From Polaromonas sp. (GTDB lineage: Bacteria; Pseudomonadota; Gammaproteobacteria; Burkholderiales; Burkholderiaceae_C), in contig JAYTMT010000002.1 of NCBI GenBank assembly GCA_043728315.1, positions 17,138-81,137 on the forward strand: a stretch of DNA of 64,000 bases. The letters run 5' to 3'. The notes under the pieces are model-generated. The model made no database searches and was not told the origin of the DNA. It saw nothing but the letters and a program-made list of their open reading frames with translations. Made by a program: the position numbers and the translations under genes. This document shows, piece by piece, positions 917 through 61,164 of this stretch. Each line of letters begins with the position of its first letter. Position 1 is the first letter of the stretch.

Positions 917-960
917 TACTATAAAAACGTAGCGAACTATCACGATATGGCGCTGACATT
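917..960 (-). repeat. degenerate copy (I) of the dispersed AATGTCAGCGTCATATGGTCATA...TATAGTA repeat
   Basis: The reverse complement reads aatgtcagcgccatatcgtgatagttcgctacgtttttatagta. This aligns along its whole length with the consensus from the other 8 copies. Confidence 0.55.
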
Positions 961-1130
961 GCCGCTATTTTCCTTAAGAAATTAAATTTACGCCAATAAC
1001 CCTATTCGAATTACCACCCAGACGCGGACGACCAGAGAATGCAAAACATCGTGTGAAGCCATTGACAAGCTCAGAGCGAACGGCGTAAAAATCGCAGATC
1101 GAGCGGAGAATGGCGAGTACAAGTCGATAC

Positions 1131-2030
1131 CTAACCAACCCCATCAAACCCAAACCCCGCCAACAAAGCCCGCGCCGCCGCCGTTTGCATGTAATCTACA
1201 AACGCCTGCGCCCCCACCCCCCCCCGTTTGAGCGCTACCATGCGTTGGTGCAGCGGGGTGTGCAGGTCGGCGGGCAGCAGCAGGTGCTGCAAGCGCGTGC
1301 CCAGTGCGGCGGCGCGCAGCAGGGGCAGGGCGGATATGCCTGCTTGCGCGGCGCCCGTGCTTACAAACTGGGTGGCTTGCGCGATGTTTTCGCCCACCAC
1401 CAGTTTGCTTTGCACGGTCTGCCATAGCCCCAGTGATGTGAGCGCCTGCTTAGCGGCTAGCCCATAGGGGGCGTGTTCTGGGTTGGCAATTGAAAATTTT
1501 TGAGCGGCTTGAATGTGCGCCGCAAACTGCGCTCCATGCCTTAACTTAAACTGCGCAGCGGAAAGCGCAGTGGCAGAAGCGTCAACCTCCGCTGGTGCAA
1601 AAGGCGAACCAGTAGCCCCCGCCCCCCACACCCACACCACCCGCCCCAGCCCATACAGCGCCCCCGCATTTTGCGTGAGCCCCCCAGTGGCCAGCCTTGC
1701 AACGAGCGCCTCGTCGGCCGACATGAACACGTCGGCGGGCAGGCCTTGGGCGATTTGCTGCGCCAGCTGGCCCGATGAACCCAGCGTGACTATTAGCCGC
1801 CAGCCGCTGACCTGCTCAAAAGCGGGGGCAATGGCTTGCAGCGCAAACTGCAAATCGCTGGCTGCGGCCACGCGCAGCGTGCCCTTATGAGCTGTTCTGG
1901 CAGCAGTTGTTTGCGCGCTTGCCGCGCCACCCCAAACGGGTAGCCCAGCGGCCAGCCCAGTAGCAAAGCCATGGCGATGGAGCTGGTACGAGACCAAGGG
2001 CAATGCCGTTAAAAGTTTGCGGCGTAGCAT
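1131..2030 (-). CDS. modA: molybdate ABC transporter substrate-binding protein
   Basis: 299-aa ORF with a signal peptide. ModA-like blocks: LRVAAASDLQFALQAI, VTLGSSGQLAQQIAQGLPADVFMSAD, SIANPEHAPYGLAAKQAL, VGENIAQATQFVSTGAAQAG. Confidence 0.8.
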   Translation of the reverse strand: MLRRKLLTALPLVSYQLHRHGFATGLAAGLPVWGGAASAQTTAARTAHKGTLRVAAASDLQFALQAIAPAFEQVSGWRLIVTLGSSGQLAQQIAQGLPADVFMSADEALVARLATGGLTQNAGALYGLGRVVWVWGAGATGSPFAPAEVDASATALSAAQFKLRHGAQFAAHIQAAQKFSIANPEHAPYGLAAKQALTSLGLWQTVQSKLVVGENIAQATQFVSTGAAQAGISALPLLRAAALGTRLQHLLLPADLHTPLHQRMVALKRGGVGAQAFVDYMQTAAARALLAGFGFDGVG

Positions 2031-2056
2031 GCCCAGCGATTTCCGGTCAAAAAGAA

Positions 2057-2332
2057 CTACTGCGCAGGCGTGGCGGCATTAACTGGGACAGAATCAATCC
2101 AAAGCATTTCTGGTGCAATGTCGATGTCGCCTGGCCAAGTGATCGTGCGGTGGGCGATGCGCGCCTGTCCGAAGAGGTGGGGATTTTTCAAGGGCTCGAA
2201 AAACGGGTAGTTCAGTAGCGACTCCACGCTAAAGCGGCGTAGGCTCGCGTCACTGAACTCAATAAGTAGGTTGGGATGGCTAATAGCCTCTATCCTGATG
2301 GGGCTTGGGTCGCGCATGGTGCGGGCACTCAC
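2057..2332 (-). CDS. DUF2442 domain protein
   Basis: 91-aa ORF (GTG at 2332 or ATG at 2317). It is small, and the 'ITWPGDIDIAPEMLW' type C-terminus is typical of DUF2442. It overlaps the upstream DUF4160 gene by 4 nt. Confidence 0.6.
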   Translation of the reverse strand: MSARTMRDPSPIRIEAISHPNLLIEFSDASLRRFSVESLLNYPFFEPLKNPHLFGQARIAHRTITWPGDIDIAPEMLWIDSVPVNAATPAQ

Positions 2333-2595
2333 AGGGGGGCAATTTTGTAGGGGGCTTGGCCAGTGGAGGCAAGCTTCCAGTCTGCCACGAGCTCGTCATG
2401 GCGCAGGTCAATCCAAGCGACGAGTAGTTTGTGCTGCCGAGATGGCAGCTTGCCTTCTAAAACTTCACCATCTACTAAGCTGTAGACAGCCTCGTGCTCC
2501 GCGTATTCAACATGAATATGCGGGAGATGGTGTCGTTGTATATCGAGCACATACATCCTCACGAGGATGCCGTAAAACATGGAAATAGTAGGCAT
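2329..2595 (-). CDS. DUF4160 domain protein
   Basis: 88-aa ORF starting MPTISMFYGILVRMYVLDIQRHHLPHIHVEYAEHEA. This is the characteristic DUF4160 N-terminus (F.GI.I.MY..DH.PPH.H). Confidence 0.7.
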   Translation of the reverse strand: MPTISMFYGILVRMYVLDIQRHHLPHIHVEYAEHEAVYSLVDGEVLEGKLPSRQHKLLVAWIDLRHDELVADWKLASTGQAPYKIAPL

Positions 2596-2898
2596 ATTGC
2601 TATTTTATATGCGCAGGACGCAAACAGCTCACTGCATGCTCAACTGCAAACCTATGCATAAACCCATGCGCCGATTGCATAGTTTTCACCGTAACCGCTT
2701 GGTAACTGACGGCTAGGCTTCTTAAAATAGGCATCCCACTGACCACAAATTGGTGCAAACCCTTGCGTTTTGATTGCGCTGTGATTCAAGCCCGATTCCA
2801 ACTAGGAAGCCACCCGCCCCGCGCCGCGCTCCACCCCACGCATGTGCCCGCTCAGTAGCTTCCTAGCTGAAATCAGGTTTTAACTTTAGGAGCTTCCC

Positions 2899-4821
2899 AT
2901 GAACTCACCCGTGATGCAGGGCCTGGCCCTCAACACCCCCGCGTATGTCAAAAATGCCCGCCTTATCGCGTGGGTGGCCGACATGGTTGCCCTGTGCAAG
3001 CCCCGCGCCATCCACTGGTGCGACGGCTCGCAGGCCGAATACGACCAGTTTTGCGCCCAGCTGGTGGCGGCTGGCACATTCAAGCCGCTAAACCCCGTGC
3101 TGCGCCCCAACTCATTCCTAGCCTGCTCCGACCCCACCGACGTGGCCCGCGTAGAAGACCGCACCTATATTTGCAGCGCCCGCAAAGAAGATGCAGGCCC
3201 GACCAACAATTGGGCTGATCCCGCTGAGATGCGCGGCATATTAGAAACCGGCACGGCTGGCAAAAAAGCTTTATTCGACGGCTGCATGCAAGGCCGCACC
3301 ATGTATGTCGTGCCCTTTAGCATGGGCCCGCTGGGCAGCCCCATTGCCCACATCGGCATCGAGCTGTCCGACAGCGCCTATGTGGCGGTCAACATGCGCA
3401 TCATGACCCGCATGGGCAAGGCCGTGTATGACGTGCTGGGCGTAGAGGGCGAATTTGTGCCCTGCGTACACACCGTGGGCGCACCGCTGGCCGCTGGCCA
3501 ACAAGACGTGAGCTGGCCTTGCAACAGCACCAAATACATCGTGCATTACCCAGCCACCCGAGAAATCTGGAGCTACGGCTCGGGCTACGGCGGAAACGCG
3601 CTCTTGGGTAAAAAGTGCTTTGCGCTGCGCATTGCATCCACCATGGGCAAAAACGATGCACAAGGCCCCTCCGGTAGCCCAGGCTGGCTCGCAGAGCACA
3701 TGCTCATTCTAGGCGTGACCAATCCGCAAGGCAAAAAATACCACGTGGCGGCTGCCTTCCCCAGCGCCTGCGGCAAAACCAATTTCGCCATGCTGATTCC
3801 GCCCGCAGGCTTTGAAGGCTGGAGCGTCACCACCATTGGCGATGACATTGCATGGATCAAGCCCCAAGCCGACGGTACATTACGTGCTATCAATCCAGAA
3901 GCGGGCTACTTCGGCGTAGCGCCGGGCACCAACACATTGACTAACCCCAACTGCATGGCCAGCTTGGACAAAAACACCATTTTCACCAACGTGGCCCTCA
4001 CCGACGACGGCGACGTGTGGTGGGAAGGCATGGGCCCAGCCCCCGCCCACGCCATCGACTGGCAAGGCAAAGACTGGAGCCCCCAAATCGCCAAAGAAAC
4101 CGGCGCAAAGGCGGCGCACCCCAATGCCCGCTTCACAGTAGCCGCCATCAACAACCCCGCGCTCGATGCCGCATGGGACGACGCAGCCGGCGTCAAAATC
4201 GACGCCTTCATCTTCGGCGGCCGCCGCAGCACCACAGTGCCGCTGATCACCGAAGCGCGCAACTGGACCGAAGGCGTCTACATGGCCGCCACCATGGGCA
4301 GCGAGACCACAGCAGCAGCCACCGGCCAAGCAGGCGTGGTCCGCCGCGACCCATTCGCCATGCTGCCGTTTTGCGGCTACAACATGGCCGACTACTTCCA
4401 GCACTGGCTAGACATGGGCGAGAAGCTGGCCAAATCCAATACTAATAACGCAGGCAACACAAGCGTTGCGCTCCCCAAAATCTACACCGCCAACTGGTTC
4501 AGAAAAGGCGCAGCCGGCCAATTCGTCTGGCCCGGCTACGGCGAAAACATGCGCGTGCTCGCATGGATGATCGACCGCATAGAAGGCAAAGCCCCCCAAG
4601 GCACCGACCACCTACTAGGCACCAGCCCCCGCTACCAAGACATCACCTGGACGGGCCTGAACTTCACCGCCGATCAGTTCACCCAAGTCACCAGCATCGA
4701 CAAAGCCGCTTGGCAAGCCGAGCTAAAACTCCACGACGAATTATTCGCCCAACTGCACCACCACTTGCCGCAGGCGCTGGTGGAGACTAAGGCCAAGCTG
4801 GAGGCGCGATTAGCCGCGTAA
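2899..4821 (+). CDS. pckG: phosphoenolpyruvate carboxykinase (GTP)
   Basis: 640-aa ORF with an AGGAG RBS. It carries the GTP-PEPCK hallmarks FPSACGKTN (P-loop), GDDIAWI and NWF. Confidence 0.95.
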
Positions 4822-8129: not shown

Positions 8130-8242
8130 GGCGGACTCCTTGTCAATATTCCTGATAGCGGATTTGCTTTTGGAATAGGGTGATATTAGCGTTTACCCTA
8201 GTGTTTGACCACTTTAGAATAGTGATGCATACTATTCATCAT

Positions 8243-9205
8243 ATGAATTTTAGAACACTAGATTTGAACCTGCTGCGCGTCTTTGACGAGGTGATGGCCG
8301 AGCGCAGCCTCACGCGCGCAGCGCACAACCTGTCACTCACCCAGCCAGCGGTGAGCAATGCGCTCAAGCGCCTGCGCTATGCCTTGGGCGATGAGCTGGT
8401 GCAGCGCGCTGGCTTTGGCATGCAGCCCACACCCAAGGCGCTGGAGCTGTGGCCAGCCGTGCGCAGCGCGCTACACAGTTTGCAGCACACGCTAGCGCCC
8501 GGGCGCTTTGATGCGGCCACGTCTAGCGCCACCTTTGTGTTAGCCATGGCCGATGCCACCGCCGCCGAGCTAGTGCCCGCGCTGGTTGAAAACATCGAAG
8601 CCCATGCGCCGGGCGTGTCGCTGCAAATTGTGCCGCTCTCCACCCGCGACCCACGGCGCTTGCTAAACGAAGGTGTGATGGACGTGGCGGTGGGGTTCTT
8701 TCCGGCGGCGCTGGCTGATTTGACGGCCAAGGCCGCGCAATCGGAAGACGGCGCTTACGAGCACCAGCGCTTGTACGATGGGGAATACGTGTGCGTGATG
8801 CGCAAAACGCATCCGCTGGCCAAAATCACTGCCAGAAAGCCGCTAAGCCTCGACCAATTTTGCGCGGCGCACCACCTGCTGGTGAGCTTCAGCGGCCGCT
8901 CCTTTGGTTATGTGGATGAAGCGCTGGCAGGGCTGGGGCGCAAGCGGCGCATTGTGCTCACGGCCAACCAGTTTTTCACGGCGGGGCGGGTGGTGGCACG
9001 GTCGGATTTGCTAACCGTGCTGCCGCGCCATTTTGTGAGCGTGGCCGACAGCGCTCGCGAGCTGGTGGTGCGCGAGCTGCCCTTTGCCATGCAGCCAGTA
9101 CACGTGGATGCCCTGTGGCACCGCCGCCGCAGCAACGACAGCGCCCACCAATGGCTGCGCCTTGCATTGCTGGGGGCAGCAGACTCGGTGTTTAGCAAAA
9201 GTTGA
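8243..9205 (+). CDS. LysR family transcriptional regulator
   Basis: The N-terminal HTH is LDLNLLRVFDEVMAERSLTRAAHNLSLTQPAVSNALKRLR. Track ORF 8180..9205; ATG 8243 (or 8225) gives the canonical N-terminus. Confidence 0.85.
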   Translation: MNFRTLDLNLLRVFDEVMAERSLTRAAHNLSLTQPAVSNALKRLRYALGDELVQRAGFGMQPTPKALELWPAVRSALHSLQHTLAPGRFDAATSSATFVLAMADATAAELVPALVENIEAHAPGVSLQIVPLSTRDPRRLLNEGVMDVAVGFFPAALADLTAKAAQSEDGAYEHQRLYDGEYVCVMRKTHPLAKITARKPLSLDQFCAAHHLLVSFSGRSFGYVDEALAGLGRKRRIVLTANQFFTAGRVVARSDLLTVLPRHFVSVADSARELVVRELPFAMQPVHVDALWHRRRSNDSAHQWLRLALLGAADSVFSKS

Positions 9206-9226
9206 AGATCAAAATACAGAAATACA

Positions 9227-9492
9227 GAAATACAGAACTGCCGAACGCAGAGGGCACAAAAGTTAAGCAGAAGACGCAAAAGCATACCAAAACAGACAGG
9301 ATATGAGTAATATATAAAAAATACTGTTAATGTCACTGTCAAATGGTCATATTATGCTATTAAAATTATAGTACATAATTCGCATATGAAAATCAAAGTT
9401 GAACTTCAGATACCTTCCTTGACAACATTTTGGCTGTTCTTTTGCGTCTTCTGCGTAACTTTTGCGCCCTCCGAGTTCGGCAGTCCGTATTC
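9227..9492 (+). mobile_element. MITE-like hairpin element A (~65-bp imperfect terminal inverted repeats around a dispersed-repeat core)
   Basis: The left arm 9227-9294 aligns with the reverse complement of the right arm 9426-9492, roughly 85% identical by eye. The core repeat lies at 9329-9373. The left end abuts a tandem (atacagaa)x3 at 9214-9237. No ORF of 60 aa or more lies wholly inside (only track ORF 9084..9266 overlaps the left edge). Confidence 0.65.
9329..9373 (+). repeat. dispersed repeat core, copy A
   Basis: aatgtcactgtcaaatggtcatattatgctattaaaattatagta, preceded by aaaaaatactgtt (subfamily 1 left flank). Confidence 0.8.
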
Positions 9493-30362: not shown

Positions 30363-30449
30363 CTCTCTGTGCCCGCTACAGCTATCCGCATCCACGTCGC
30401 CAAGCGTCCAACCAATCAAAAAATGCACTGATTTATGAAATTTAAGCAC

Positions 30450-30494
30450 AATGTCAGCGTCATATGGTCATATTGCGCTATTAAAAATGTAGTG
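30450..30494 (+). repeat. dispersed repeat core, copy B
   Basis: aatgtcagcgtcatatggtcatattgcgctattaaaaatgtagtg, with subfamily 2 left flank atttatgaaatttaagcac. It overlaps the 5' end of the caspase-1 ORF. Confidence 0.85.
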
Positions 30495-32831
30495 AATAAA
30501 ATCGCCGTGGCTTGCTCCATAGTCTGCGGCACATGCAGCCTTGGTCTGCCACCAGCGGCTTGGGCGCAAGCGGCCAAGCCCGCCAGCAGCAAGGACGCCG
30601 ACCGCAATTTGCAGGTTACCGCTGCGCCAGCGGCAGCGTTTCCGGGCCAGTCTGCGGGACGGCGCGTGGCCTTGGTGATTGGCAACAGCGCCTACAAAGA
30701 CTCGCCCCTGCTCAACCCCGTGAACGACGCACGCGCTATCAGCGCCGCGCTGACGGAGTCTGGCTTCACCGTGATTGCCCGCGAAAACACCGACCAGCGC
30801 GGCATGCTGTCAGCCCTGCGCGAGTTTGGCGACAAGCTGCGCGACGGCGGCGTGGGTATTTTTTATTACGCAGGCCATGGCATGCAAATCAAGGGGCGCA
30901 ATTATTTGATCCCCGTGGGCGCAAGCATTGAGCGTGAGGACGAGGTGGCCTACAGCGCGGTGGACGCGCAGGCCGTGCTCGACAAAATGGAAGCTGCAGG
31001 CAACGGCACCAACATAATGATTTTAGATGCCTGCCGCAACAACCCCTTTACCCGCAGCACCCGCAGCGGCCAAGCCGGTTTGGCGCAAATGGACGCGCCC
31101 GTGGGCACTTTGGTGGCCTTTGCCACCAGCCCGGGCGCTGTTGCCAGCGACGGCGGCGGGCAAAACGGCCTGTACACCCAGCACCTGCTCACCGCCATGC
31201 GCCAGCAGGGCGCTAAGGTGGAAGATGTGTTCAAGCAGGTGCGCGCCAATGTGCGACGCGACTCGCAGGGCAAGCAAGTGCCATGGGAGAGCACCTCGCT
31301 GGAAGGGGATTTTTACTTCAAAGTGCCCACTGGTTTGACTGCTGGCGCACCCAGCGCGGGTTTCAACGCAAATGCCGCAGTAGAAGCCGCCCTGTGGGAT
31401 GCTGTGAAAAATAGCTCCACACCCATCGAGCTGCGCGCCTACCTTAACCGCTATCCGCAGGGGCAATTTGCAGCGCCCGCGCGCGCGCGCTTGGAGCAAT
31501 TGCTGCCAGCTACAGCGCAAACAGCTGCTGCGGTAAACCCGGCTACCCAAAGCCCCCGCGTGAATTACCGTGTGGGCGATAGCTGGACATTTGCGGTCGA
31601 TAACTTGCTCACCAACAAGCAAAGCAGCTACACCCACCGCATCACATCAGTGGCGGCCAATGGCGACGGTTTGATAAATGAAGGTGCTGTTGTGTATAGC
31701 GCCACGGCCCAAGCCAAATACATACGCAGCGAAGACCGCGAGCGGTTTTATAGCGATGGCTTTCGCAGCACCCCCAGTCAATTGCGCATCGGCTTTAAAG
31801 AGCCTGTGAGCTACGAAATCATCACCAAAAATAAAGACGGCAGAGATGACAAGTTCATAGCCGCAGGCACGATTGAAGTCGCAGCCCAAGAAAAAGTCAG
31901 CACCCCCGCTGGCGAATTCATGGCTTGGCGCATCAAGCGCATCACCCGCGGCACCTTGGCCAACGGCGATGCGCATTTGCTAGACCACACCTACTGGTAT
32001 GCGCCCGAAATAAAACGCTTGGTAGCCCAAGACACCACCGACACCAATCTCACCACAGGCAAAATCACCTCACGCGCCAAGGTGAGCTTGCAAAAATACT
32101 ACTTAGCAGATGCCACCCTGAGCGCCAGCGCAGATGGCATAGCCGCCGTAGAGAAGCGCACCGACGAGTTGCTGGCGCAGCTGGCACTGGCTAAGCCCGC
32201 AAGCAGTGGCAGCCCTAAGCCAAGCATTGCGAGCAACAGCTTTGGCTACACCGTGGGTGACCGCTGGCGCTACCAAACGGTAGACCGCTACAAATCAGAG
32301 GTCACAGGCAATTGGTCGCGTCAGGTGGATAAATTTGATGCACAAGGCGGCATCACCATGCGCGGGGGCACTGTACGCTGGTCAGCAGACGGCTCGTGGC
32401 GCTACCAGCGCGATGCAGATGGCAGCACGCTGGAGTATTCTGATAATTTCAAAATGGTGCCTGCCACGCTCAAGGCGGGTCACTCAGAGAAAGCAAAGTT
32501 CACGCTCACGTGGAAAAACAGCGGTGGAAACGGACAAGAGGAACGCAGCGGTGATGTCAAGGTGCTTGGCCTAGAAAAAATCAAAGTGCCCGCTGGGGAA
32601 TTTGACGCTTGGAAAATCGAGCACAAAGGCTTCATCACAGGTAAAAACCTCAGCGCTTCCACCGCCTATAACCAAAGCTACACCTTGGTGCAATGGTATG
32701 TGCCCGCTCTGCGCGCCTATGTGGCAGAAGACTATGAACGGCGCGATAGCCGTGGCAATATCGACCGCTTTGTTCGCCAAGAGCTCACCAGCTTTGAGGT
32801 GGCAGGGGCTCAGCACCTCGCCCAGCGCTAA
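30492..32831 (+). CDS. exported caspase-family (peptidase C14) protein with two C-terminal beta-rich repeat domains (caspase-1)
   Basis: Signal peptide ...LPPAAWA-QA. C14 blocks VALVIGNSAY, NPVNDA, YYAGHGMQ (His) and LDACRNNPF (Cys). The start is ambiguous: ATG 30435 lies inside the repeat flank, and in-frame GTG 30492 gives a normal-length signal peptide. Confidence 0.8.
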   Translation: MNKIAVACSIVCGTCSLGLPPAAWAQAAKPASSKDADRNLQVTAAPAAAFPGQSAGRRVALVIGNSAYKDSPLLNPVNDARAISAALTESGFTVIARENTDQRGMLSALREFGDKLRDGGVGIFYYAGHGMQIKGRNYLIPVGASIEREDEVAYSAVDAQAVLDKMEAAGNGTNIMILDACRNNPFTRSTRSGQAGLAQMDAPVGTLVAFATSPGAVASDGGGQNGLYTQHLLTAMRQQGAKVEDVFKQVRANVRRDSQGKQVPWESTSLEGDFYFKVPTGLTAGAPSAGFNANAAVEAALWDAVKNSSTPIELRAYLNRYPQGQFAAPARARLEQLLPATAQTAAAVNPATQSPRVNYRVGDSWTFAVDNLLTNKQSSYTHRITSVAANGDGLINEGAVVYSATAQAKYIRSEDRERFYSDGFRSTPSQLRIGFKEPVSYEIITKNKDGRDDKFIAAGTIEVAAQEKVSTPAGEFMAWRIKRITRGTLANGDAHLLDHTYWYAPEIKRLVAQDTTDTNLTTGKITSRAKVSLQKYYLADATLSASADGIAAVEKRTDELLAQLALAKPASSGSPKPSIASNSFGYTVGDRWRYQTVDRYKSEVTGNWSRQVDKFDAQGGITMRGGTVRWSADGSWRYQRDADGSTLEYSDNFKMVPATLKAGHSEKAKFTLTWKNSGGNGQEERSGDVKVLGLEKIKVPAGEFDAWKIEHKGFITGKNLSASTAYNQSYTLVQWYVPALRAYVAEDYERRDSRGNIDRFVRQELTSFEVAGAQHLAQR

Positions 32832-32863: not shown

Positions 32864-34507
32864 ATGAACCTCTGGCAACGCAGTACCCAAGCCCTAGGCG
32901 CGCTCCCCGCGCGGCGCGTCACGTGGGTGTTGGCCATCGTATTTAGCCTGTGGGCGGTGGCCGATATGGCGTATTTCAAGGTATCTAGCGGCTTGGCGCA
33001 AAACAGCTACGACGCGATGGTGCGCGCCCGCCTGTATGCCCCGCCCGCCGACCCGCGCGTGCTGATCATCGACATTGACGAAGCATCGCTCTCGCGCATG
33101 GCCAGTGAGTTTGGCCGCTGGCCGTGGCCGCGCGACACGCTGGCTACCGTGCTTGATTACATCGAAAAGCAAGCGCCCGCCGCCGTGGTGTGGGATGTGC
33201 TGTTTGCCGACCCGGACCGCCTCTCGCCTGGCGGCGACAAAGCTTTTGACGAGGCGGCCAAGCGCAGTGCCCACAGCCATTTTCCGGTGGTGCGCCTGCC
33301 CGCTGCCAACGACGGCAAAAGCAAACTGAGCCGCAGCGGTTTGCCCAATTTGTGGCTGCCCAGCACAGATGCGGCGGTGAACCAAAGCACGCAAACGCTG
33401 GCTGTGATCCCTCCATTTTTGGCAAGCATTGCCAACAGTCGCTTGGGCTACAACAACGGCTACCCCGACAACGATGGCGTGCTGCGCCGCTACCGCTATG
33501 TGGAGCGCCTGCCCGGAGGCGGCGTGATCCAGTCCATTCCCGTGAGCGTGGCGCGCAGCCTGAATGCTGCGCAAATGCAAAATACTTCTAATTTAATAGC
33601 AGAAGACGACGCTTTCACGCCGACATCAGGTAAAAAAATCTTAAAAGACAAGCTCATGGTGTGGCGCAAAAATGCCAACGCCTACCCGCGCGTGGCTTTT
33701 GCCGATGTGTTCAACGCCGCCGAGGGCGGCAAGCCCCTGAAAGCGCTGCCCGATTTCAAAGGCAAAATCATCGTCATAGGGTCCACTGCGCCCAGTTTGC
33801 ATGACATCCACCCCACGCCGCTGGCGCCCACGCAGGCTGGCGTAGACAGCTTGGCCACCGCCATCGACAACGCTGTGAACGGCCATTTCGTGGCCGAGCT
33901 GCCGCGCTGGCTGCAAGCGGGGCTGGCCGTGCTCATGTGTGTGCTGCTGGCCTACTGGGTGAGCGGTTTTCAGGGCGGCAAAGGCTTGGCCTCATTAGAC
34001 CCAGCCTTGTTGATCTTGCCGGGCACTTTGCTGGCCATCAGCTTTGCCAGCCTCAATGGCACGCCCTTGTTCGTTGACTTGCAGCTGGCCGCAGGCACTG
34101 CCTTGCTTTTTTTAGCGGCGCTGCGCACATGGAATGGCTGGCGGCGCGACCACTGGTGTGGCTACTCGCCCGCCCCAGAAGCGCTTGTTGGTGTGCACGC
34201 CTCCCAGCCGCTGGCCGGTGTGGGCCTGGACCGCTTGATTGGCATGTTGGCCAAACACGCCCCCGCTTGCCGCGTGGTGGCCGGTGATGCCAGCGCCACA
34301 TGGCCGGCCAGCCTGCGCTGGAGCGAGTTGGCGCGCTTTTGTGCCGTATGCGGCCCCGCTGAGCAGCTTGCGGCTTTGGCGCAAGCGCCTTGGCCAGACG
34401 GCACGCAGTTTGGCGCCACGCAAATGCTGGCTAATTTGCCTGCCGACAACCCGCAGCGCAGCGCCCACATTGCCCAAGCAGCAGTGCGTGCTTGCGCCGC
34501 TTTATAA
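32864..34507 (+). CDS. CHASE2 domain membrane protein without recognisable output domain
   Basis: N-terminal TM segment and the CHASE2 hallmark VLIIDIDEASLSRMASEFGRWPWPRDTLATVLDYI...VVWDVLFADPD. Three C-terminal TM helices are followed by a ~130-aa tail in which I recognise no motif. Confidence 0.8.
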   Translation: MNLWQRSTQALGALPARRVTWVLAIVFSLWAVADMAYFKVSSGLAQNSYDAMVRARLYAPPADPRVLIIDIDEASLSRMASEFGRWPWPRDTLATVLDYIEKQAPAAVVWDVLFADPDRLSPGGDKAFDEAAKRSAHSHFPVVRLPAANDGKSKLSRSGLPNLWLPSTDAAVNQSTQTLAVIPPFLASIANSRLGYNNGYPDNDGVLRRYRYVERLPGGGVIQSIPVSVARSLNAAQMQNTSNLIAEDDAFTPTSGKKILKDKLMVWRKNANAYPRVAFADVFNAAEGGKPLKALPDFKGKIIVIGSTAPSLHDIHPTPLAPTQAGVDSLATAIDNAVNGHFVAELPRWLQAGLAVLMCVLLAYWVSGFQGGKGLASLDPALLILPGTLLAISFASLNGTPLFVDLQLAAGTALLFLAALRTWNGWRRDHWCGYSPAPEALVGVHASQPLAGVGLDRLIGMLAKHAPACRVVAGDASATWPASLRWSELARFCAVCGPAEQLAALAQAPWPDGTQFGATQMLANLPADNPQRSAHIAQAAVRACAAL

Positions 34508-36740: not shown

Positions 36741-36763
36741 GGTAAATTATAAAAAATACTACT

Positions 36764-36807
36764 GATGTCATCGTCATATGGTCATAGTGTGCTATTAAAT
36801 TAATACT
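36764..36807 (+). repeat. dispersed repeat core, copy C
   Basis: gatgtcatcgtcatatggtcatagtgtgctattaaattaatact, preceded by aaaaaatactact. It ends 18 nt before the caspase-3 GTG. Confidence 0.8.
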
Positions 36808-36825
36808 CAAACGAGGAGATAAGCG

Positions 36826-46072: not shown

Positions 46073-46855
46073 TCAGGCCGCCAAATAGCGCGTGAGTTTG
46101 TCTGCCAACACCTGCGCCACTTCGTTCCAACTGGCTTGCACCCCCAGCGTAGCCATGTCAATGGTTTGCAGCCCCGCATAGCCGCAGGGGTTGATGCGCG
46201 AAAACGGCTCTAAATCCATCGCCACATTCAGCGCCACCCCGTGGTAAGTGCAGTGGCGGCTCACCTTGATGCCCAGCGCCGCGATTTTGCCAAGGCCCGT
46301 GAAATCCAAAGAATTAGGGTCAGAACCTAATTGTTTGGCGCTTGGCGCGTTGGAGTCTGGCAAATAATTAGGTTCTGACCCTAATTCTTTTTTCTGAGGC
46401 CGCTGCGCAAAGGGGCTGTGGCCAAAGGGGTCATCCAACCGCACGTAGATGCCCGGCGCGCCTGCCAAGCGGTGGCCAGTGATGCCAAAATGCAGCAGGG
46501 TTTTAAGCACCGATTCTTCGATTTTATAAACGTATTCTTTGACAAAATAACCAGCGCGCTTGAGATCTATCAGCGGATACGCCACCACCTGCCCAGGTCC
46601 ATGGTAGGTCACCTGCCCGCCCCGGTTGGTTTGCACCACGGGGATGCCAGCAGCGTTAAAAATATGTTCTGCCTTGCCCGCCAACCCTTGGGTAAACACC
46701 GCATCATGCTCGCATATCCATAGCGTATTATGACCATATGACGCTGACATTGGGCTAATTTTATTCAAATTACCGTTCAAACGGTCATCTGTATAGGCCT
46801 GCATCGCCGCATACGTGTCGGCGTAGTTCACGCGGCCTAGAAAACGGGTGTGCAT
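46073..46855 (-). CDS. lipB: octanoyltransferase carrying two in-frame repeat insertions
   Basis: Motifs [29 protein letters not shown] and INPCGYAGL. At 260 aa it is longer than typical LipB because of the segments encoded by 46721-46766 and 46308-46390. Confidence 0.9.
46308..46390. repeat. palindromic element (25-bp perfect inverted repeat, 33-nt spacer) inside lipB
   Basis: aaagaattagggtcagaacctaatt (46308-46332) is the exact reverse complement of aattaggttctgaccctaattcttt (46366-46390). It is read in frame as ...[28 protein letters not shown]... Confidence 0.85.
46721..46751 (-). repeat. dispersed repeat core, copy D (left half only) inside lipB
   Basis: The reverse complement reads aatgtcagcgtcatatggtcataatacgcta with left flank aatttgaataaaattagccc. 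It is translated in frame as [14 protein letters not shown]. Confidence 0.8.
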
Positions 46856-47147: not shown

Positions 47148-47251
47148 GGCTCGGGTTTTTGGAGTTTGAGGTTACGAATGCTTGGCAATTGATGCGCTGT
47201 CACGCGATTGTGCGCGCTAAATCGGCGCGGTATGTTGGCAGCTGCCTTGGT

Positions 47252-48265
47252 TTAGGCTGTGACAGTGGCGGCCTTGGCCGCTTGGTAGGCGGCGTAGAGT
47301 TTTTGGTAAACGGGGCCGGGTTGGCCTGCGTGGCTTTGATTTTGGCCGACTTTTTTGCCGTCTAGCGTTGTCACAGCCAGCACTTCTTTGGTGGCGGATG
47401 ACAAAATGAGTTCGTCGCAGTTCAGCACTTCCTCACGGCTTAAGCGGCGCAGTTCAAAGGGAATTCCACTGGCGGCGCACATGTCGGCAATCAGGCCGTA
47501 GCGGATGCCTTCGAGCACCAAGTTGTCTTTGGGCGGGCCGTAGACCACACCGTTTTTCACCACCCACACATTGCTGGAAGCGGCTTCTGAGAGGTAATCA
47601 CCGCGAAACATCACGGTTTCCACTGCGTCTGCATCTACGCTGATTTGGCGGGCAAACACCGAGCCGAGCAGGCTGGTGGACTTGATGTGGGCCTTTTGCC
47701 AGCGGAAATCATCGGCGCTTACGCAGGCCACGCCGCGCTCGCGCTGCGCGGGGCTGGGGCGGGGCAGGCGGTTGCACATGGCAAACACGGTGGGCGTGAT
47801 GCCTGCGGGCATGGCGTGGTCGCGCAGGGCCACGCCGCGCGTGAGCTGGATGTAGATCAGGTGGTCGGTGGGGCTTTCAGGGCTGTCTTTAGCGCTGCTT
47901 TGGGGCGCTGGCGCGCTATCCGCTGGCGCCAAAGTGCCCGCAGCGCTGTCAAGCGCTGAATTTACAGAATTTTTGGCTAATGTCAGCGTAAAATGGTCAT
48001 AGTGCGCTATGAGTTGCATAGCAATAGCTTTCCATTCACCCCGCGTATGGGGGTTGGCAATGCGCATCTCAGCCAAGCTGCGCTCCAGCCGCGCCATGTG
48101 CTGCTCAAAGCGAAACACCCGCCCGCCGTAGCTGGCCAACACCTCATACACCCCATCGCCAAAGATAAACCCTCGGTCCATCACGCTGACCTTGGCTTCG
48201 TTAAGCGGGGTGTAGGCACCGTTGAGGTAACAGGGGGTGGCGGGGATGTCTTGGGTGGTTTGCAT
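47252..48265 (-). CDS. dat: class IV (D-amino-acid/branched-chain) aminotransferase with an in-frame insertion
   Basis: VSVMDRGFIFGDGVYEV, IYIQLTRG and a class IV C-terminus. An extra ~45 aa precede the IYIQLTRG block. Confidence 0.8.
   Translation of the reverse strand: MQTTQDIPATPCYLNGAYTPLNEAKVSVMDRGFIFGDGVYEVLASYGGRVFRFEQHMARLERSLAEMRIANPHTRGEWKAIAMQLIAHYDHFTLTLAKNSVNSALDSAAGTLAPADSAPAPQSSAKDSPESPTDHLIYIQLTRGVALRDHAMPAGITPTVFAMCNRLPRPSPAQRERGVACVSADDFRWQKAHIKSTSLLGSVFARQISVDADAVETVMFRGDYLSEAASSNVWVVKNGVVYGPPKDNLVLEGIRYGLIADMCAASGIPFELRRLSREEVLNCDELILSSATKEVLAVTTLDGKKVGQNQSHAGQPGPVYQKLYAAYQAAKAATVTA
47979..48010 (+). repeat. dispersed repeat core, copy E (left half only) inside dat, antisense to the gene
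   Basis: aatgtcagcgtaaaatggtcatagtgcgctat, read on the minus strand as IAHYDHFTLTLA. Confidence 0.75.
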
Positions 48266-48298: not shown

Positions 48299-48539
48299 TA
48301 TTCGGGTTTCCGGCCGCGAAGGGCGCGAAAGTTGCGCTAAAAACGCGAAAGGAAAACCAAAAAATAAGAAAAAATAAAAATACTAGCAATGTCAGCGTGA
48401 TATGGTTATTTTATGCTATTAAAAATATAGTATATAGAAAAAAATGCTAAACTTTATATGCTTTCGCAGATATTACTTTGGCTGTTTTTTAGCGTTTTTC
48501 GCGCAACTTTCGCGCCCTTCGCGGCCGGAAGTCCGAATA
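48299..48539 (+). mobile_element. MITE-like hairpin element F (~64-bp inverted arms around a dispersed-repeat core)
   Basis: The left arm 48299-48362 aligns with the reverse complement of the right arm 48476-48539 (tattcgggtttccggccgcgaagggcgcgaaagttgcgc... vs tattcggacttccggccgcgaagggcgcgaaagttgcgc...). Confidence 0.7.
48388..48433 (+). repeat. dispersed repeat core, copy F
   Basis: aatgtcagcgtgatatggttattttatgctattaaaaatatagtat, preceded by aaaaatactagc. Confidence 0.8.
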
Positions 48540-49656: not shown

Positions 49657-49673
49657 GTTAAAAATAAAGTCGT

Positions 49674-49715
49674 TATAAAATTAATAGCACACTATGACCA
49701 TATGACGCTGACATT
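49674..49715 (-). repeat. dispersed repeat core, copy G
   Basis: The reverse complement reads aatgtcagcgtcatatggtcatagtgtgctattaattttata with left flank aatttatagattttcagcac. It ends 17 nt upstream of the MBL gene ATG (49656). Confidence 0.85.
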
Positions 49716-49750
49716 GTGCTGAAAATCTATAAATTAACAGCCAAACAGCA

Positions 49751-58633: not shown

Positions 58634-58667
58634 CCAGTGATGATTGATTAAAATACCCAGTGTCACC

Positions 58668-59297
58668 ATGCAGCCGTCACATAACGCTACTATTTATATA
58701 GTTGATGACGATGCCAGCGTGCGCGATGCACTGGCCTGGCTGCTGCGCTCGCGGCGCTTGCCCAGCCAAGCCTTTGACAGTGCCGAGGCTTTTTTGCAGC
58801 ATCTGAGCAGCAATCGCCCGACTGTTGGCGAACCCTGCTGTCTGCTGCTAGATGTGCGCATGCCCGGTATGAGCGGTTTGGCGTTATTTGACGAGCTGGC
58901 TAGCAGTGGCCAGCACCTGCGCATGCCGGTGATTTTTCTCACCGGGCATGCCGATGTGCCCACCGCAGTTGACATGCTCAAGCGGGGTGCTTTTGATTTT
59001 TGTGAAAAACCTTTTTCTGACAACGCCTTGGTAGACCGCGTGGAGCTGGCGTTGGCCGCCTCGGCCAAGCTCATGGCCGACGATGTGGGGGTGGACAAAT
59101 TGCGCCAATTGCTGGCCGAGCTGACCGAGCGCGAGCGCGATGTCATGCGCTTGGTGACCGAGGGTCTGCCCAACAAGCTGATTGCCGACCAGTTGAGTAT
59201 CAGCGTGCGCACAGTGGAAGTGCACCGCGCCCGCGTGTTTGACAAAATGGATGTGAAATCGGCCGTGGAACTGGCCAATTTGCTGCGAAAAATATAG
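58668..59297 (+). CDS. response regulator, FixJ/LuxR family
   Basis: Receiver domain (IYIVDDDASVRDAL..., LLLDVRMPGMSG) plus a LuxR HTH (LTERERDVMRLVTEGLPNKLIADQLSISVRTVEVHR). ATG 58668 lies within the track ORF starting at 58644. Confidence 0.85.
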   Translation: MQPSHNATIYIVDDDASVRDALAWLLRSRRLPSQAFDSAEAFLQHLSSNRPTVGEPCCLLLDVRMPGMSGLALFDELASSGQHLRMPVIFLTGHADVPTAVDMLKRGAFDFCEKPFSDNALVDRVELALAASAKLMADDVGVDKLRQLLAELTERERDVMRLVTEGLPNKLIADQLSISVRTVEVHRARVFDKMDVKSAVELANLLRKI

Positions 59298-59308
59298 TAC
59301 CGCAGCGC

Positions 59309-59554
59309 CTATACTTGGGCTTGGTCGGACTTGGTGGGTACGCTAGTGGCGGGCAACCCAACGCTGGAATTGCTGGCGCTTGCTGTAGTGGATGCCGTGG
59401 CGGTGTGTGCCGTGGTAGCGGATGTGGGCGCAGTGGCTTCCTCTGCCTCATCTGCCACAGGCTCACCGCCATTTCGGCCAGAAAACATGGTCCACCAAAC
59501 GATCAACACCAAGAGCAGCATCGCGCCAAGCGCCTCAAGCAAAAGAAGGGTCAT
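59309..59554 (-). CDS. possible small membrane protein (conflicts with the long version of mltA)
   Basis: An internal ATG of track ORF 59309..59662 gives MTLLLLEALGAMLLLVLIVWWTMFSG..., one clean TM helix plus an acidic/Thr-Ala-rich tail. There is no homology evidence. Confidence 0.25.
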   Translation of the reverse strand: MTLLLLEALGAMLLLVLIVWWTMFSGRNGGEPVADEAEEATAPTSATTAHTATASTTASASNSSVGLPATSVPTKSDQAQV

Positions 59555-59558
59555 CACC

Positions 59559-60785
59559 GTGCATTCGACAAAATTTAAACGACCAGCCAAGCGCTGGCTA
59601 CTTGCGGCGATTGTAGGCCTGCTTGCTGCTTGTGGCACTGCACCACCCCGCATGGCCGACACAGCGCCTCAGTCTGCGCCTGCTTCACCGGCAGCATCTA
59701 CAACGCCCGCAGCTGGCTCATCCCCCGCTGTAGCAGCGCCAGCGCCGCCAGCGGTAGCCTTGCCAGCTGGCAGCCCAATGCCCAGCACTGAAGCGGGCAC
59801 ACTCACGCAGCCCAAAAGCCGCTGGGTGGCGGTGCAGTGGTCTGAGCTGCCCGGTTTTAACGACGACGCGCTGCATGAGGCGTGGAATGCGTGGATCAAG
59901 AGCTGCGAGCGCCCACACCCCAAGTTTGCGCCACTGTGCCCCGAAATTCGCCGCTTGAGCATTGCAGCGGGCGACGAGCAGCGCGCTTGGATGGGCCAAC
60001 GCCTGCAGCCCTACCGCGTGGAAGCGCTCGATGGCAAAACCGAGGGCATGCTCACGGGTTACTACGAGCCCATGCTGCCCGCCGCCCGCCAAGCAGGCAA
60101 TGGCTACGCCGTGCCCCTGTATAGCCTGCCTGCCATGGCCAAGCGCCCGTGGTATACCCGCCAAGAGATGGACACCGCTCCGCAGGCGCTTGCCGCCTTG
60201 CAAGGCAAGGCCATTGCCTACTTAGCTGACCCCGTGGACGCACTGGTACTGCACATCCAAGGCTCGGGCCGCTTGCGCGTGACCGAGGCCGACGGCAGCC
60301 AGCGCACGGTGCGGGTGGCCTTTGCGGGCACGAATGAGCAGCCTTACAAATCGGTGGGACGTTGGCTCTTGGATGCAGGAGAGATCAAAGATGCCAGCTG
60401 GCCGGGTATCAAAGCATGGGTACAGCGCAACCCGCAGCGCGTGCAAGAAATGCTGTGGAGCAACCCGCGCGTGACGTTTTTTAAGGAAGAGCCGCTGCCA
60501 GACATGGATTCGAGCCTGGGCCCCAAGGGCGCGCAGGGCGTGCCGCTCACGCCCGGGCGCTCTATAGCGGTAGACCGCCAGAGCATTCCGTATGGCACAC
60601 CGGTGTGGATGCAGTCCAAAGGCGAGGCCGTGGACGTGCAAAAACTGGTGATGGCGCAAGACACGGGCAGCGCTATTTTGGGCGCGGTGCGGGCCGATTA
60701 TTTTGTCGGATGGGGGTCTGAAGCGGGGGACGTGGCGGGTCGATTAAAGCAAGCGCTCAAGCTGTGGGTGCTGTGGCCTAAATAA
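59559..60785 (+). CDS. mltA: membrane-bound lytic murein transglycosylase A
   Basis: GTG 59559 has an RBS (aagaaggg) and gives the lipoprotein signal KRWLLAAIVGLLAAC-G. MltA/3D-domain blocks are GYYEP, LVLHIQGSGRL, FFKE and AVDRQSIPYGTPVWM. The track ORF begins at 59331. Confidence 0.85.
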   Translation: MHSTKFKRPAKRWLLAAIVGLLAACGTAPPRMADTAPQSAPASPAASTTPAAGSSPAVAAPAPPAVALPAGSPMPSTEAGTLTQPKSRWVAVQWSELPGFNDDALHEAWNAWIKSCERPHPKFAPLCPEIRRLSIAAGDEQRAWMGQRLQPYRVEALDGKTEGMLTGYYEPMLPAARQAGNGYAVPLYSLPAMAKRPWYTRQEMDTAPQALAALQGKAIAYLADPVDALVLHIQGSGRLRVTEADGSQRTVRVAFAGTNEQPYKSVGRWLLDAGEIKDASWPGIKAWVQRNPQRVQEMLWSNPRVTFFKEEPLPDMDSSLGPKGAQGVPLTPGRSIAVDRQSIPYGTPVWMQSKGEAVDVQKLVMAQDTGSAILGAVRADYFVGWGSEAGDVAGRLKQALKLWVLWPK

Positions 60786-60804
60786 GTTTTGAAAAGGAGA
60801 ATTT

Positions 60805-61164
60805 ATGAAAAAACAAGGCAATGTCAGCGTCATATGGCCATATACCGCTATATTAATTATAGTATTGACAGGGCTTGTAGCTTGCGCTGCACCAGAGCCT
60901 AGCGGCCTAGCCAAGGCCAGTTTGCCCTTTTACCGCTGCGAACACGGCATCGCCTTCACTGCCAAATTTGATGGCGATGCGGTAACTCTGGATTCAAGCC
61001 GTGGCTACGACCTATTGTTTGCCCGCAGCAAGGCCGAACAAGACAAACAGGAATACAGCAATCCGCGCATGAGCGCCAGCTTTGGCCTAGGCAGCAGCGG
61101 GCGCGAGGCGCAGTTGCGCTACCCCTTATTGCCATTGATTGCGCGTTGCGTGCGGGATAATTAG
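60805..61164 (+). CDS. small lipoprotein, MliC-like (tentative)
   Basis: Lipobox LTGLVAC, 119 aa, Cys near both ends of the mature part, and adjacent to mltA. The signal peptide is encoded by repeat copy H. Confidence 0.55.
   Translation: MKKQGNVSVIWPYTAILIIVLTGLVACAAPEPSGLAKASLPFYRCEHGIAFTAKFDGDAVTLDSSRGYDLLFARSKAEQDKQEYSNPRMSASFGLGSSGREAQLRYPLLPLIARCVRDN
60820..60864 (+). repeat. dispersed repeat core, copy H
   Basis: aatgtcagcgtcatatggccatataccgctatattaattatagta, with left flank aatttatgaaaaaacaaggc. Confidence 0.85.

Follow-up and report, generated by a model that had tools for sequence, protein, structure and literature searches.

A lineage-restricted ~66-bp interspersed repeat with a conserved core in Polaromonas-like Comamonadaceae

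A dispersed repeat in a 64-kb Polaromonas window

The window that we analysed, 64,000 nt of a Polaromonas sp. contig (GCA_043728315.1, JAYTMT010000002.1), carries nine copies of a short repeat beside or inside genes that include those for LysR, Peptidase_C14, LipB, class IV aminotransferase and MBL-fold proteins (Table 1). All nine had been listed in the original prediction and proved genuine, aligning over the proposed core at every coordinate given. A profile HMM built from the nine copies recovered them within the window with E-values of 1.5e-18 to 1.6e-13, and its next-best matches were two decayed copies. A degenerate 31-mer (RATGTCANYGTNAWATGGYYATWNNNYGCTA) matched 8 of the 9 copies, while 100 shuffles gave no match.

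Table 1. Repeat copies and flanking ARM repeats in the window
Feature	Coordinates	Strand	Evidence	Setting
Copy A	914..980	-	nhmmer E = 4.3e-15	Past the stop of solute-binding-protein gene 1131-2030(-) (Pfam), directed to lower coordinates
Left ARM repeat, copy B	9235..9288	-	nhmmer with ARM profile; sequence	
Copy B	9309..9375	+	nhmmer E = 1.5e-14	Centre of ARM-bracketed composite; LysR gene 8180-9205 on one side, phosphoesterase gene 9536-10366 on the other (Pfam)
Right ARM repeat, copy B	9433..9487	+	ARM profile; sequence	
Copy C	30430..30496	+	nhmmer E = 1.5e-18	Overlaps possible starts ATG 30435 and GTG 30492 of Peptidase_C14 gene 30435-32831 (Pfam)
Decayed copy	33582..33650	-	nhmmer E = 3.7e-4; sequence GATGTCGGCGTGAAAGCGTCGTCTTCTGCTATTAAATTAGAAGTAT	Antisense within CHASE2 gene 32864-34507(+)
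Copy D	36744..36810	+	nhmmer E = 2e-16	85-nt spacer of Peptidase_C14 genes 34239-36740 and 36826-38418
Copy E	46705..46771	-	nhmmer E = 1.1e-17	Sense, in-frame in lipB 46073-46855(-)
Copy F	47959..48025	+	nhmmer E = 7.2e-17	Antisense, in-frame in class IV aminotransferase gene 47252-48265(-)
Left ARM repeat, copy G	48304..48353	-	ARM map	
Copy G	48368..48434	+	nhmmer E = 1.6e-13	Centre of second ARM-bracketed composite; antisense, minus-strand genes on either side; orthologue in L118
Right ARM repeat, copy G	48481..48535	+	ARM map	
Copy H	49669..49735	-	nhmmer E = 2.4e-17	Flanked by CopD-like gene 49751-50218(-) and MBL-fold gene, start 49656(-)
Decayed copy	58644..58703	+	Weak nhmmer hit; GCTACTATTTATATAGT palindrome; sequence	At start of ORF 58644-59297
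Copy I	60800..60866	+	nhmmer E = 8e-17	

Counted from the first A of AATGTCA, the unit spans about -20 to +46, or ~66 bp; beyond these limits information content is at background. The core had been placed correctly in the original prediction and the left edge had not, as conservation continues ~20 nt further left. An AT-rich left arm is followed by an asymmetric core of 32 bp (consensus AATGTCAsCGTCAwATGGTCATAgtnyGCTAT) and an AT-rich right arm. Three GTCA direct repeats lie within the core, which has a three-block layout over about three helical turns, and the right arm closes a palindrome, GCTAY-N7-RTAGY. Copies E and F, given shorter coordinates earlier, are not truncated and retain a diverged right part, which in copy F reads GCTAT-GAGTTGC-ATAGC. 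Two left-flank subfamilies do exist, with memberships other than those first assigned, where the letters had been shifted: ATAAAAAATACT is found in the copies at 9329, 36764 and 48388, and the AATTTATGAAA type in those at 30450, 46751, 47979, 49715 and 60820. No stable hairpin was detected in the copies (z-scores -1.9 to +0.9), no terminal inverted repeats except a 7-bp TATAAAA/TTTTATA resemblance, no target duplication of at least 6 bp and no matching Rfam family, in agreement with the original prediction, in which no described REP/ERIC/Correia-type element had been recognised. The palindrome likewise showed no covariation.

An abundant repeat confined to one clade

Beyond the window, the profile returned 79 hits in 299 kb of the Polaromonas-like clade, with a density outside the seeded sites of about 1 per 7 kb, and none in 463 kb of loci from other Comamonadaceae, which bears out a dispersed repeat family. 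Among the matches listed in a genome scan, three MAGs were represented, all of Polaromonas/Comamonadaceae. The repeat is restricted to the Polaromonas-like clade of Comamonadaceae, and in one lineage of this kind it probably reaches hundreds of copies per genome. Genes in the 35 MAG loci used below were called crudely, and the calls were consistent with those of the database (L116, L118, L122) and with Pfam checks.

In-frame copies inside housekeeping genes

Many copies lie in frame within housekeeping genes, namely those for LipB, class IV aminotransferase, EarP, MetH, PEP carboxylase, DprA and HscB. The host ORFs are real, since Pfam domains continue across the insertion points (EarP, PEP carboxylase, HscB, AlkA, DprA and a GNAT acetyltransferase). 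Intragenic copies use three reading frames, and the consensus TAG has been lost from those that are in frame. Some in-frame copies are predicted to supply signal peptides. The left-arm ATG 60805 of copy I opens a 119-aa ORF (60805-61164), an arrangement repeated in L015, and from its sequence the copy would encode a lipoprotein-type signal peptide (MKKQGNVSVIWPYTAILIIVLTGLVAC).

Entry of the copies by insertion is supported by protein alignments, as the insertion sites in LipB, the aminotransferase and MetH hold 12-19 residues that homologues lack. Copy E encodes 17 residues in a LipB loop at which homologues are 8-12 residues shorter, and the MetH copy accompanies 19 residues more than in the solved human enzyme. 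Around copy F, whose coding product is LIAHYDHFTLTLAKNSVNS, the aminotransferase of the window has 33 additional residues (homologues lack ~33) and that of L118 has 14, the repeat-specific part in L118 being 42 nt. At EarP site 1, the net length change relative to other Comamonadaceae is ~0. As net length change at intragenic copies is variable, overprinting or conversion would fit too. No clean pair of filled and empty sites with alignable flanks was obtained. Copy content varies among clade members: upstream of earP, L125 has two copies and L122 one, and the difference is not a simple insertion.

This distribution resembles that of Rickettsia palindromic elements (RPE), short lineage-specific repeats that occupy spacers and, unusually often, lie in frame in unrelated housekeeping genes with intact products (PMC10969869). 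RPE are palindromic, ~100-150 bp long and belong to obligate intracellular Alphaproteobacteria, whereas the hairpin-free, ~66-bp repeat described here occurs in free-living Betaproteobacteria.

Orthologous copies share a slowly evolving core

The syntenic relative L118 has orthologues of copies D, E, F, G and H at the corresponding sites, with a core that is 28/32 identical for copy D and 29/32 for copy H, the flanks of the latter being unalignable. Copy E, retained in L010, L118, L121 and P0001-P0004, is found in every LipB of the clade, in decayed form in some members (PLSTPYGH and PLSPPYGH in P0002 and P0003). An outgroup genome with a GC content of 66.6% carries decayed relics at both EarP sites. 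Across orthologous copies, core identity was 137/160 (86%) versus 570/873 (65%) at four-fold sites (binomial p = 6e-9), and the arms were ~63% identical. Core conservation was independent of strand and of intergenic or intragenic location.

Because the core changes more slowly than synonymous sites, an alternative offered in the original prediction, a binding site for some factor, gains some support from these comparisons. The copies might form a host-serving network of binding sites, for instance for a nucleoid-associated protein or a global regulator, with insertional spread being secondary. Conservation of the core in whatever context, fixation of copies across clade members and the three-block layout would all be expected of such a network. 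We nevertheless consider it unlikely: the LipB copies have decayed in P0002 and P0003, no positional logic by gene or strand is apparent, and gene conversion among copies, rather than selection, could be the source of the constraint.

Comparison with known repeat systems

It is distinctly unlikely, despite several shared traits, that the repeat is of the REP/REPIN type and depends on a RAYT-like HUH transposase. As in REP, BIME and REPIN-RAYT systems, copies are probably numerous, occur in both orientations and are common at gene ends, with 9 between convergent genes and 3 between divergent ones. They are inherited vertically and fixed at orthologous sites, and REPIN-RAYT systems are described as persistent, vertically inherited and similar in sequence over the long term. 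The palindrome in its GCTAC-N7-GTAGC form includes GTAG-like motifs, and some copies of a related repeat, 'Z', have GC-rich stems of 7-8 bp. However, the repeat itself has neither a stable hairpin with a GC-rich stem nor a covarying palindrome, its copies are mostly singletons instead of inverted doublets, and many are intragenic rather than strictly extragenic.

The 'Z' repeat belongs to other Comamonadaceae. It has the same GCTAY-N7-RTAGY palindrome and sits, with matching relative orientation, in the LipB loop and the aminotransferase helix-loop that hold the clade repeat, but the two profiles do not match outside the palindrome, and Z runs on into a hairpin-like segment rich in GC. Correia/NEMIS, ERIC and similar MITEs are likewise small, non-coding, multicopy insertions with promoter-like hexamers and occasional in-frame ORF fusions; they differ from the repeat in their terminal inverted repeats and target duplications, and no related IS was found for it. 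In neisserial intergenic mosaic elements, inverted dRS3 repeats enclose the repeat units. A similar mosaic is seen for 12 of 78 copies, which lie in a fixed layout between ~50-bp inverted ARM repeats, but the sequences are unrelated, the other 66 copies are without ARMs, and one ARM pair encloses no copy.

Among published repeats of related bacteria, the beta-proteobacterial repeat element BRE also has Polaromonas among its hosts and is mostly intergenic with some copies in coding sequences (PMC3110155). BRE is, however, 75-91 bp long, 69% GC and often tandem (PMC3110155), whereas the present repeat is AT-rich and never tandem. Spaced motifs reported from P. naphthalenivorans CJ2 (ATAGCT(N)22CAAAAG) and A. 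ebreus (GCTTAT(N)5AAGCG) are 81-94% intergenic, many between convergent genes (PMC5217627), a distribution similar to that of the clade repeat. Both motif strings were absent from the clade's loci, and a link to these motifs is possible as a lead only.

We also weighed an uptake-signal-like motif under molecular drive, in which biased uptake or recombination would favour core-bearing DNA, as for DUS/USS. The extended Haemophilus USS has AT-rich flanks about a conserved core, similar to the repeat. Orientation neutrality, presence in both genes and spacers, retention of the core at orthologous sites and the unchanged length at EarP site 1 fit such a motif, as does lineage specificity, sister lineages having a different motif, Z, at the orthologous positions. 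This origin is still highly improbable: a 32-bp core at ~1 per 7 kb is much longer and rarer than the 9-12 bp at ~1 per kb of uptake sequences, ~80% of copies are intergenic by the crude gene calls, and point substitution is insufficient to produce copies that enter as insertions and add 12-19 residues to MetH, LipB and aminotransferase.

Position and orientation relative to genes

The original prediction read the repeat as a mobile promoter or 5'-leader cassette, whose -35/-10 pair would drive or lead the downstream gene. Its distances were correct (18 nt to GTG 36826, 17 nt to ATG 49656 and 162 nt to ATG 9536), and the sense-upstream bias in 6 of 9 copies holds in this window. Over 78 copies the bias disappears, with 27 pointing at a gene start, 26 facing a gene 3' end and at least 16 intragenic. 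Orientation was split 21 to 23 relative to the G-rich strand and 32 to 27 relative to the majority gene strand. For at least five of the nine copies between convergent genes, this arrangement was confirmed by Pfam matches of both genes that extend to the C-termini.

As orientation and position are random relative to genes, the promoter cassette is refuted by the test that the original prediction had itself proposed, and we regard it as the least probable reading of all, even though the consensus holds TGGTCA-N17-TATAGT and 7 of the 27 start-directed copies end 6-20 nt ahead of the start codon, a spacing that leaves almost no leader. Mean -10 match hardly varies by class (4.2 vs 3.9 of 6), and orthologues of copies D and H have kept the upstream core but not the -10-like hexamer. 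Between 30 and 49.9 kb, where six copies lie, a consensus promoter scan made no sense calls and two antisense calls in the copies, and its regional count of 9 was near the expected 7.3. The promoter-like hexamers are probably a by-product of the AT-rich arms.

A probable old family of insertion elements

Overall, the original interpretation is partly supported: the dispersed repeat is genuine, yet its role as a promoter cassette is unsupported. We consider it moderately probable that the repeat is an ancient family of short interspersed insertion elements, non-autonomous and restricted to one lineage, in which the core remains under constraint. Copies spread in the ancestor of the Polaromonas-like Comamonadaceae clade. 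They landed, in either orientation, in short spacers between genes, and also in protein loops or N-termini that tolerate them, where only in-frame, stop-free versions survived. The present copies are essentially fixed and passed on vertically at orthologous sites, with the 32-bp core probably protected from mutation while the arms drift. This combination of a held core and drifting arms is best explained by the core being a recognition site, presumably for a trans-acting DNA-binding protein, which may be an element-moving enzyme or a host factor. No enzyme candidate was found, which counts against the insertion-element reading, as do the lack of terminal inverted repeats, hairpin and target duplication, the lack of a clean filled and empty site pair, the variable length change at intragenic copies and the chance that gene conversion keeps the core uniform.

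More tentatively, the mobile unit may be limited to 42-57 nt, made up of the left arm and two-thirds of the core from its left end, inserted beside a pre-existing GCTAY-N7-RTAGY palindrome common to other Comamonadaceae. A recognised core would make the family comparable to REP/REPIN-RAYT systems in persistence and to RPE in intragenic behaviour. The repeat thus resembles old selfish DNA with a protected 32-base core, and not a portable gene switch.

A dispersed repeat of about 66 bp

The repeat forms a dispersed family of ~66-bp units in random orientation, with in-frame copies inside genes that bring extra residues, and with copies fixed at orthologous sites. The nine copies in the window that made up the original prediction (A–I; see table) are all present and clearly related, each matching a profile HMM at E = 1.5e-18 to 1.6e-13, and the profile detected two further, decayed copies. 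As the exact 45-mer first proposed for the family finds one copy only, even with up to three mismatches allowed, a profile is needed to recover it. A degenerate 31-mer over the core matches eight of the nine copies, versus none in 100 dinucleotide shuffles. The two left-flank variants described earlier do exist, with the letters assigned to them shifted, and copies E and F, previously taken as short, are not truncated and retain a diverged right part.

Built from 59 good copies, the information profile gave a unit of ~66 bp composed of two arms, a variable link and a core. The palindrome formed at its right side has seven matches in the window versus 0.35 expected. Scanning species-representative genomes with the 31-mer yielded at least 35 stretches; among the matches listed, all lay in three metagenome-assembled genomes (MAGs) from glacier-fed streams, labelled Polaromonas or Comamonadaceae. 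The window sequence is also matched by an ENA glacier-stream scaffold. A profile search of the window and the 31-mer loci identified 79 copies in 299 kb. Without the copies that had seeded the loci, density was ~1 per 7 kb, equal to that of the window, which by extrapolation probably corresponds to several hundred copies per genome of this Polaromonas-like lineage (the clade). Other Comamonadaceae, represented by 80 metagenome loci (463 kb) fetched via the aminotransferase gene, gave no profile match at E < 0.01.

Parts of the repeat and positions of copies and associated sequences (window coordinates unless a locus is named)
Feature	Position	Detail
Left arm		taTTTataaAAAATa (information profile)
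Variable link		5 nt, after left arm
Core		32 bp, AATGTCAgCGTCATATGGTCATAgt.tGCTAT (information profile)
Right arm		taAttttatAgtat; with GCTAT makes GCTAY-N7-RTAGY
Copy A	914-980(-)
Copy B	9309-9375(+)
Copy C	30430-30496(+)
Copy D	36744-36810(+)
Copy E	46705-46771(-)	lipB
Copy F	47959-48025(+)	class IV aminotransferase gene
Copy G	48368-48434(+)
Copy H	49669-49735(-)
Copy I	60800-60866(+)
Decayed copy	33582-33650(-)	profile HMM
Decayed copy	58644-58703(+)	profile HMM
ARM pair	9235-9288 / 9433-9487	inverted repeats
ARM pair	48304-48353 / 48481-48535	inverted repeats
'Z' repeat	L082 4671-4758, L086 7697-7785, L084 7693-7780, L092 7723-7811	control loci
'Z' repeat within genes	L082 1254-1309 and 2335-2399, among others	control locus

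Copies inside protein-coding genes

Copy E is in-frame in lipB, and copy F is antisense and in-frame in its host gene. Homologues from other Comamonadaceae have 8–12 residues fewer at the LipB loop and ~33 fewer at the aminotransferase site. Further hosts in the clade, with copies within Pfam-spanned domains, are HscB, an Ada/AlkA-like protein, PEP carboxylase, a GNAT acetyltransferase and MetH, the last having 19 additional residues compared with the solved human enzyme; EarP hosts two copies on opposite strands, and DprA also hosts two. Three reading frames recur, namely NV(S/T)VIWSY.AI, (P/A)MS(A/P)S(Y/N)GH and the antisense IA.YDH(M/L)T(L/V)T. In the first of these, ATG-AAA-AAA from the left arm together with a hydrophobic run provides the N-terminus of four exported proteins, including the small lipoprotein at 60805 of the window, and these N-termini would function as signal peptides.

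Two protein-level features were seen at host genes. In locus L125, from the same sample as the window, the database call for EarP (1713-3188, 491 aa) has ~100 additional residues at its N-terminus, beginning directly behind a copy (1628-1690), and its start is probably mis-called because of the repeat. The lipB gene of the window (46073-46855) contains an 18-residue internal duplication at residues ~155–190, which is also found in LipB protein clusters P0001 and P0002 and not in P0003, P0004 or loci L010 and L118.

Position relative to genes and the promoter reading

The original prediction saw the family as a mobile promoter or 5′-leader cassette, or as the binding site of an unknown global factor, and its distances from copies to neighbouring start codons were correct on re-measurement. 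We called genes with a codon log-odds model and classified 78 copies. Whereas 27 pointed at the start of a downstream gene, 26 faced a gene 3′ end; 16 were inside genes and nine had an ambiguous context. Because database gene calls for L118 and L122 place 7 of 15 copies within genes, the intragenic share of 20% from our own calls is a lower estimate. In clean spacers between co-directional genes, 14 copies were sense and 15 antisense, and nine more were located between convergent and three between divergent genes. Five convergent cases were checked, and Pfam matches of both neighbours reached the C-termini, for example in a short-chain dehydrogenase gene facing a homoserine dehydrogenase gene. 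Strand preference was absent (G-rich strand, 21:23; majority gene strand, 32:27), which rejects a Chi- or KOPS-type polar motif, and intragenic copies are found on both strands.

Promoter-like hexamers are part of the consensus (TGGTCA-N17-TATAGT), with mean matches of 3.6 (−35) and 4.0 (−10) of six. The −10 match is about equal in copies able and unable to drive a gene, and between orthologous copies it is not conserved while the upstream core is. Of the six copies in the 30–49.9 kb region, none was called as a sense-strand promoter by a promoter scan, and a sigma-54 promoter was rejected as GG and GC in TGGTCATAGTnTGCTA are one base too close for the consensus. Random placement relative to genes had been named from the outset as contrary to a promoter cassette, and the balance between starts and gene ends, with convergent pairs confirmed, is of this kind. 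The promoter part of the reading is not supported; its 'mobile' and 'unknown factor' parts survive.

Age of the family and constraint on the core

A large protein collection holds merely four close LipB clusters (84–91% identity). All carry copy E, which is decaying in two of them, and the next relatives, at most 70% identical, are without it. Copies D, E, F, G and H have counterparts at the same sites in L118, a syntenic relative whose genes are ~85% identical at the nucleotide level. The core evolves more slowly than synonymous sites: between orthologous copies, 137/160 positions of the 32-bp core were identical versus 570/873 four-fold degenerate sites from eight neighbouring genes (binomial p = 6e-9), and the arms were ~63% identical. 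In intergenic copies D and H and in a copy upstream of earP, 28–29 of 32 core positions were identical and the flanking spacer was unalignable.

Decayed but recognisable relics, ATAGCA..CAT.CGACGCTG and CGTCAATGGGTCATTCTTCGCTAT, persist at the two sites in the EarP gene (10001-11167) of an outgroup genome (GCA_016707245, 66.6% GC; locus L124). They include the rare codon ATA, and no intact copy was found in 21 kb of this outgroup. Copy content varies within the clade, as L125 has two copies upstream of earP versus one in L122. No empty site was found at this position, where the flanks of L029 and L122 are unalignable and the difference between L122 and L125 goes beyond a simple insertion. Together, shared orthologous sites, relics and the constrained core indicate that the family is old and mostly fixed. 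The core is kept in this clade only, through selection or homogenisation.

A shared palindrome and a possible target

The palindrome, and sites in two genes, are common to another repeat. The control loci of other Comamonadaceae carry this 'Z' repeat (TTGCTACAAAATTAATAGCTACTCGCGCATATCCCACGAGGGCT...) in spacers as well as within genes, and it is also in-frame at the LipB loop and aminotransferase segment that hold copies E and F, oriented in the corresponding way. Profiles of the two repeats agree over GCTAY-N7-RTAGY only: the ACTCGCGCATATCCCACGAGGGCT-type segment that adjoins the palindrome in 'Z' has no counterpart in the profile of the window repeat, and the 'Z' profile has no match in clade locus L122.

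In the L118 aminotransferase gene, the repeat-specific part is exactly 42 nt (left arm plus core positions 0–19), flanked by the palindrome (plus 9 nt) and a Z-like remainder, and its junctions show no duplication. LipB genes with a short native loop encode LWIC as CTC TGG ATC TGC; all insertion-bearing LipB genes and a few without a loop insertion use CTA TGG ATT TGT, giving the palindrome-like GCTCACAAATCCATAGC. Judging from this 42-nt part and the LWIC codon usage at the two gene sites, 42–57 nt may have been inserted next to a target that was already present and now forms the right third of the 'element'. In P. naphthalenivorans and A. ebreus, Tong et al. (PMC5217627) described over-represented spaced motifs that are similarly distributed. 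As the exact strings ATAGCT(N)22CAAAAG and GCTTAT(N)5AAGCG are absent from clade loci, a link to these motifs is only a lead; one control-locus match to the second string is a plain hairpin without the palindrome.

Comparison with known repeat families

Closest in behaviour are the palindromic elements of Rickettsia and REP/REPIN systems. The former likewise insert in-frame into unrelated protein genes with the host protein retained; by description they are set apart as palindromic and 100–150 bp long, whereas the repeat here is ~66 bp, has no palindromic fold and belongs to a Comamonadaceae host. REP/REPIN behaviour is a close match in abundance, persistence and vertical inheritance, and many copies, both orientations and persistence at orthologous sites are shared features. 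However, the present repeat does not keep to extragenic locations and is without a stable stem-loop, as the consensus and six copies, folded as DNA, did no better than shuffles (z = −1.9 to +0.9), and no compensatory changes were found in the GCTAT-N7-ATAGY palindrome.

MITEs such as Correia and ERIC have terminal inverted repeats, and none were found here: the arms share merely a 7-bp TATAAAA/TTTTATA resemblance in the logo, and folds showed no end-to-end pairing. Nor was target duplication detected, flank repeats of at least 6 bp being no commoner than in permuted flank pairs, a comparison that leaves room for duplications of up to 3 bp. A DNA uptake sequence has a short core at very high density and arises by substitution without length change, whereas this 32-bp core occurs at ~1 per 7 kb and copies add 12 to 19 amino acids at three genes, with EarP site 1 ambiguous. 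An RNA element was rejected, with no Rfam match at gathering score across the whole window and no support from folds or covariation, and a phage or plasmid origin was rejected with no match to the repeat in IMG/VR or PLSDB. A transposon whose inverted ends would be copies E and F (46721-48010, containing ybeD-like and aminotransferase genes) is dismissed as both copies are inside conserved genes, a terminator as no stem followed by a T-run is found at copies, and BRE as size and composition differ. The earlier view that the repeat falls outside REP-, ERIC- and Correia-type elements was borne out. Lacking the structural features of Rickettsia palindromic elements, REP/REPIN and MITEs, it is filed under short interspersed bacterial repeats, in no named family.

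Neighbouring sequences in the window

Some copies are bracketed by 'ARM' sequences, ~50-bp inverted repeats made of GACGCARAG-like 9–10-mers, which also occur in L005, L009, L012, L028, L033 and L035. The arrangement around the 12 copies (of 78) that they surround is fixed, ARM-(12–38 nt)-repeat-(25–101 nt)-ARM, and one pair, in L017 (5861-6037), encloses no copy. ARM conservation between the window and L118 is ~92%. Three units of the heptamer AAATACAG (~9205-9232) adjoin the left ARM of copy B, and comparable ATACCG/ATACAG units extend ARMs in L009.

The MBL-fold hydrolase gene at 48577-49650(-) has an in-frame TAG (ELD*WDT, ~49003-49005), which splits the call into two ORFs (202 and 149 aa); its L118 orthologue is intact (372 aa). 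Between eamA and lipA, positions 39722-44904 hold a HipA_C-domain gene and a 1175-aa SNF2/DEAD helicase gene. Both are missing from L118, where lipB and lipA are instead separated by a TctC gene, and the segment looks like an inserted block. A cluster at 29658-38418, partly syntenic in L118, comprises an OmpA-family gene, three caspase-like Peptidase_C14 genes, one with SH3 and DUF4384 domains, and a CHASE2 sensor gene.

A putative repeat-plus-protein system

Hairpins or inverted ends account for the movement of REPs and MITEs, and this repeat has neither. As its core is nevertheless protected at fixed sites, a protein partner is implied. Copies would have arisen in an ancestor via insertion of non-autonomous DNA, with the core as presumed recognition site of a trans-acting protein and GCTAY-N7-RTAGY as a possible target. 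On a more speculative reading, which we consider rather unlikely, the family and a protein together make up a repeat-plus-protein system that is inherited vertically: a 32-bp tag at what are probably several hundred fixed sites, some of them in loops of essential enzymes, would be actively kept in sequence by selection or templated homogenisation, and its variable module would have been swapped, from Z type to the present type, at the same orthologous sites beside the shared palindrome.

Short repeats that invade proteins in-frame are best known from Rickettsia, and this would be a comparable case in free-living cold-water Betaproteobacteria that touches the housekeeping enzymes LipB, MetH, EarP, PEP carboxylase and DprA. 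The repeat also seems to have been recruited as a signal peptide on several occasions. In practice, it will mislead promoter prediction and start-codon calling and break metagenome assemblies of the lineage, and it is a sharp lineage marker. Its significance would be greater if the core is actively maintained by a dedicated system. Were the repeat-plus-protein reading true, Comamonadaceae would possess trans-acting machinery that recognises GCTAY-N7-RTAGY and writes or maintains adjacent DNA, and does so with none of the hairpins, inverted repeats or duplications seen in known transposition systems.
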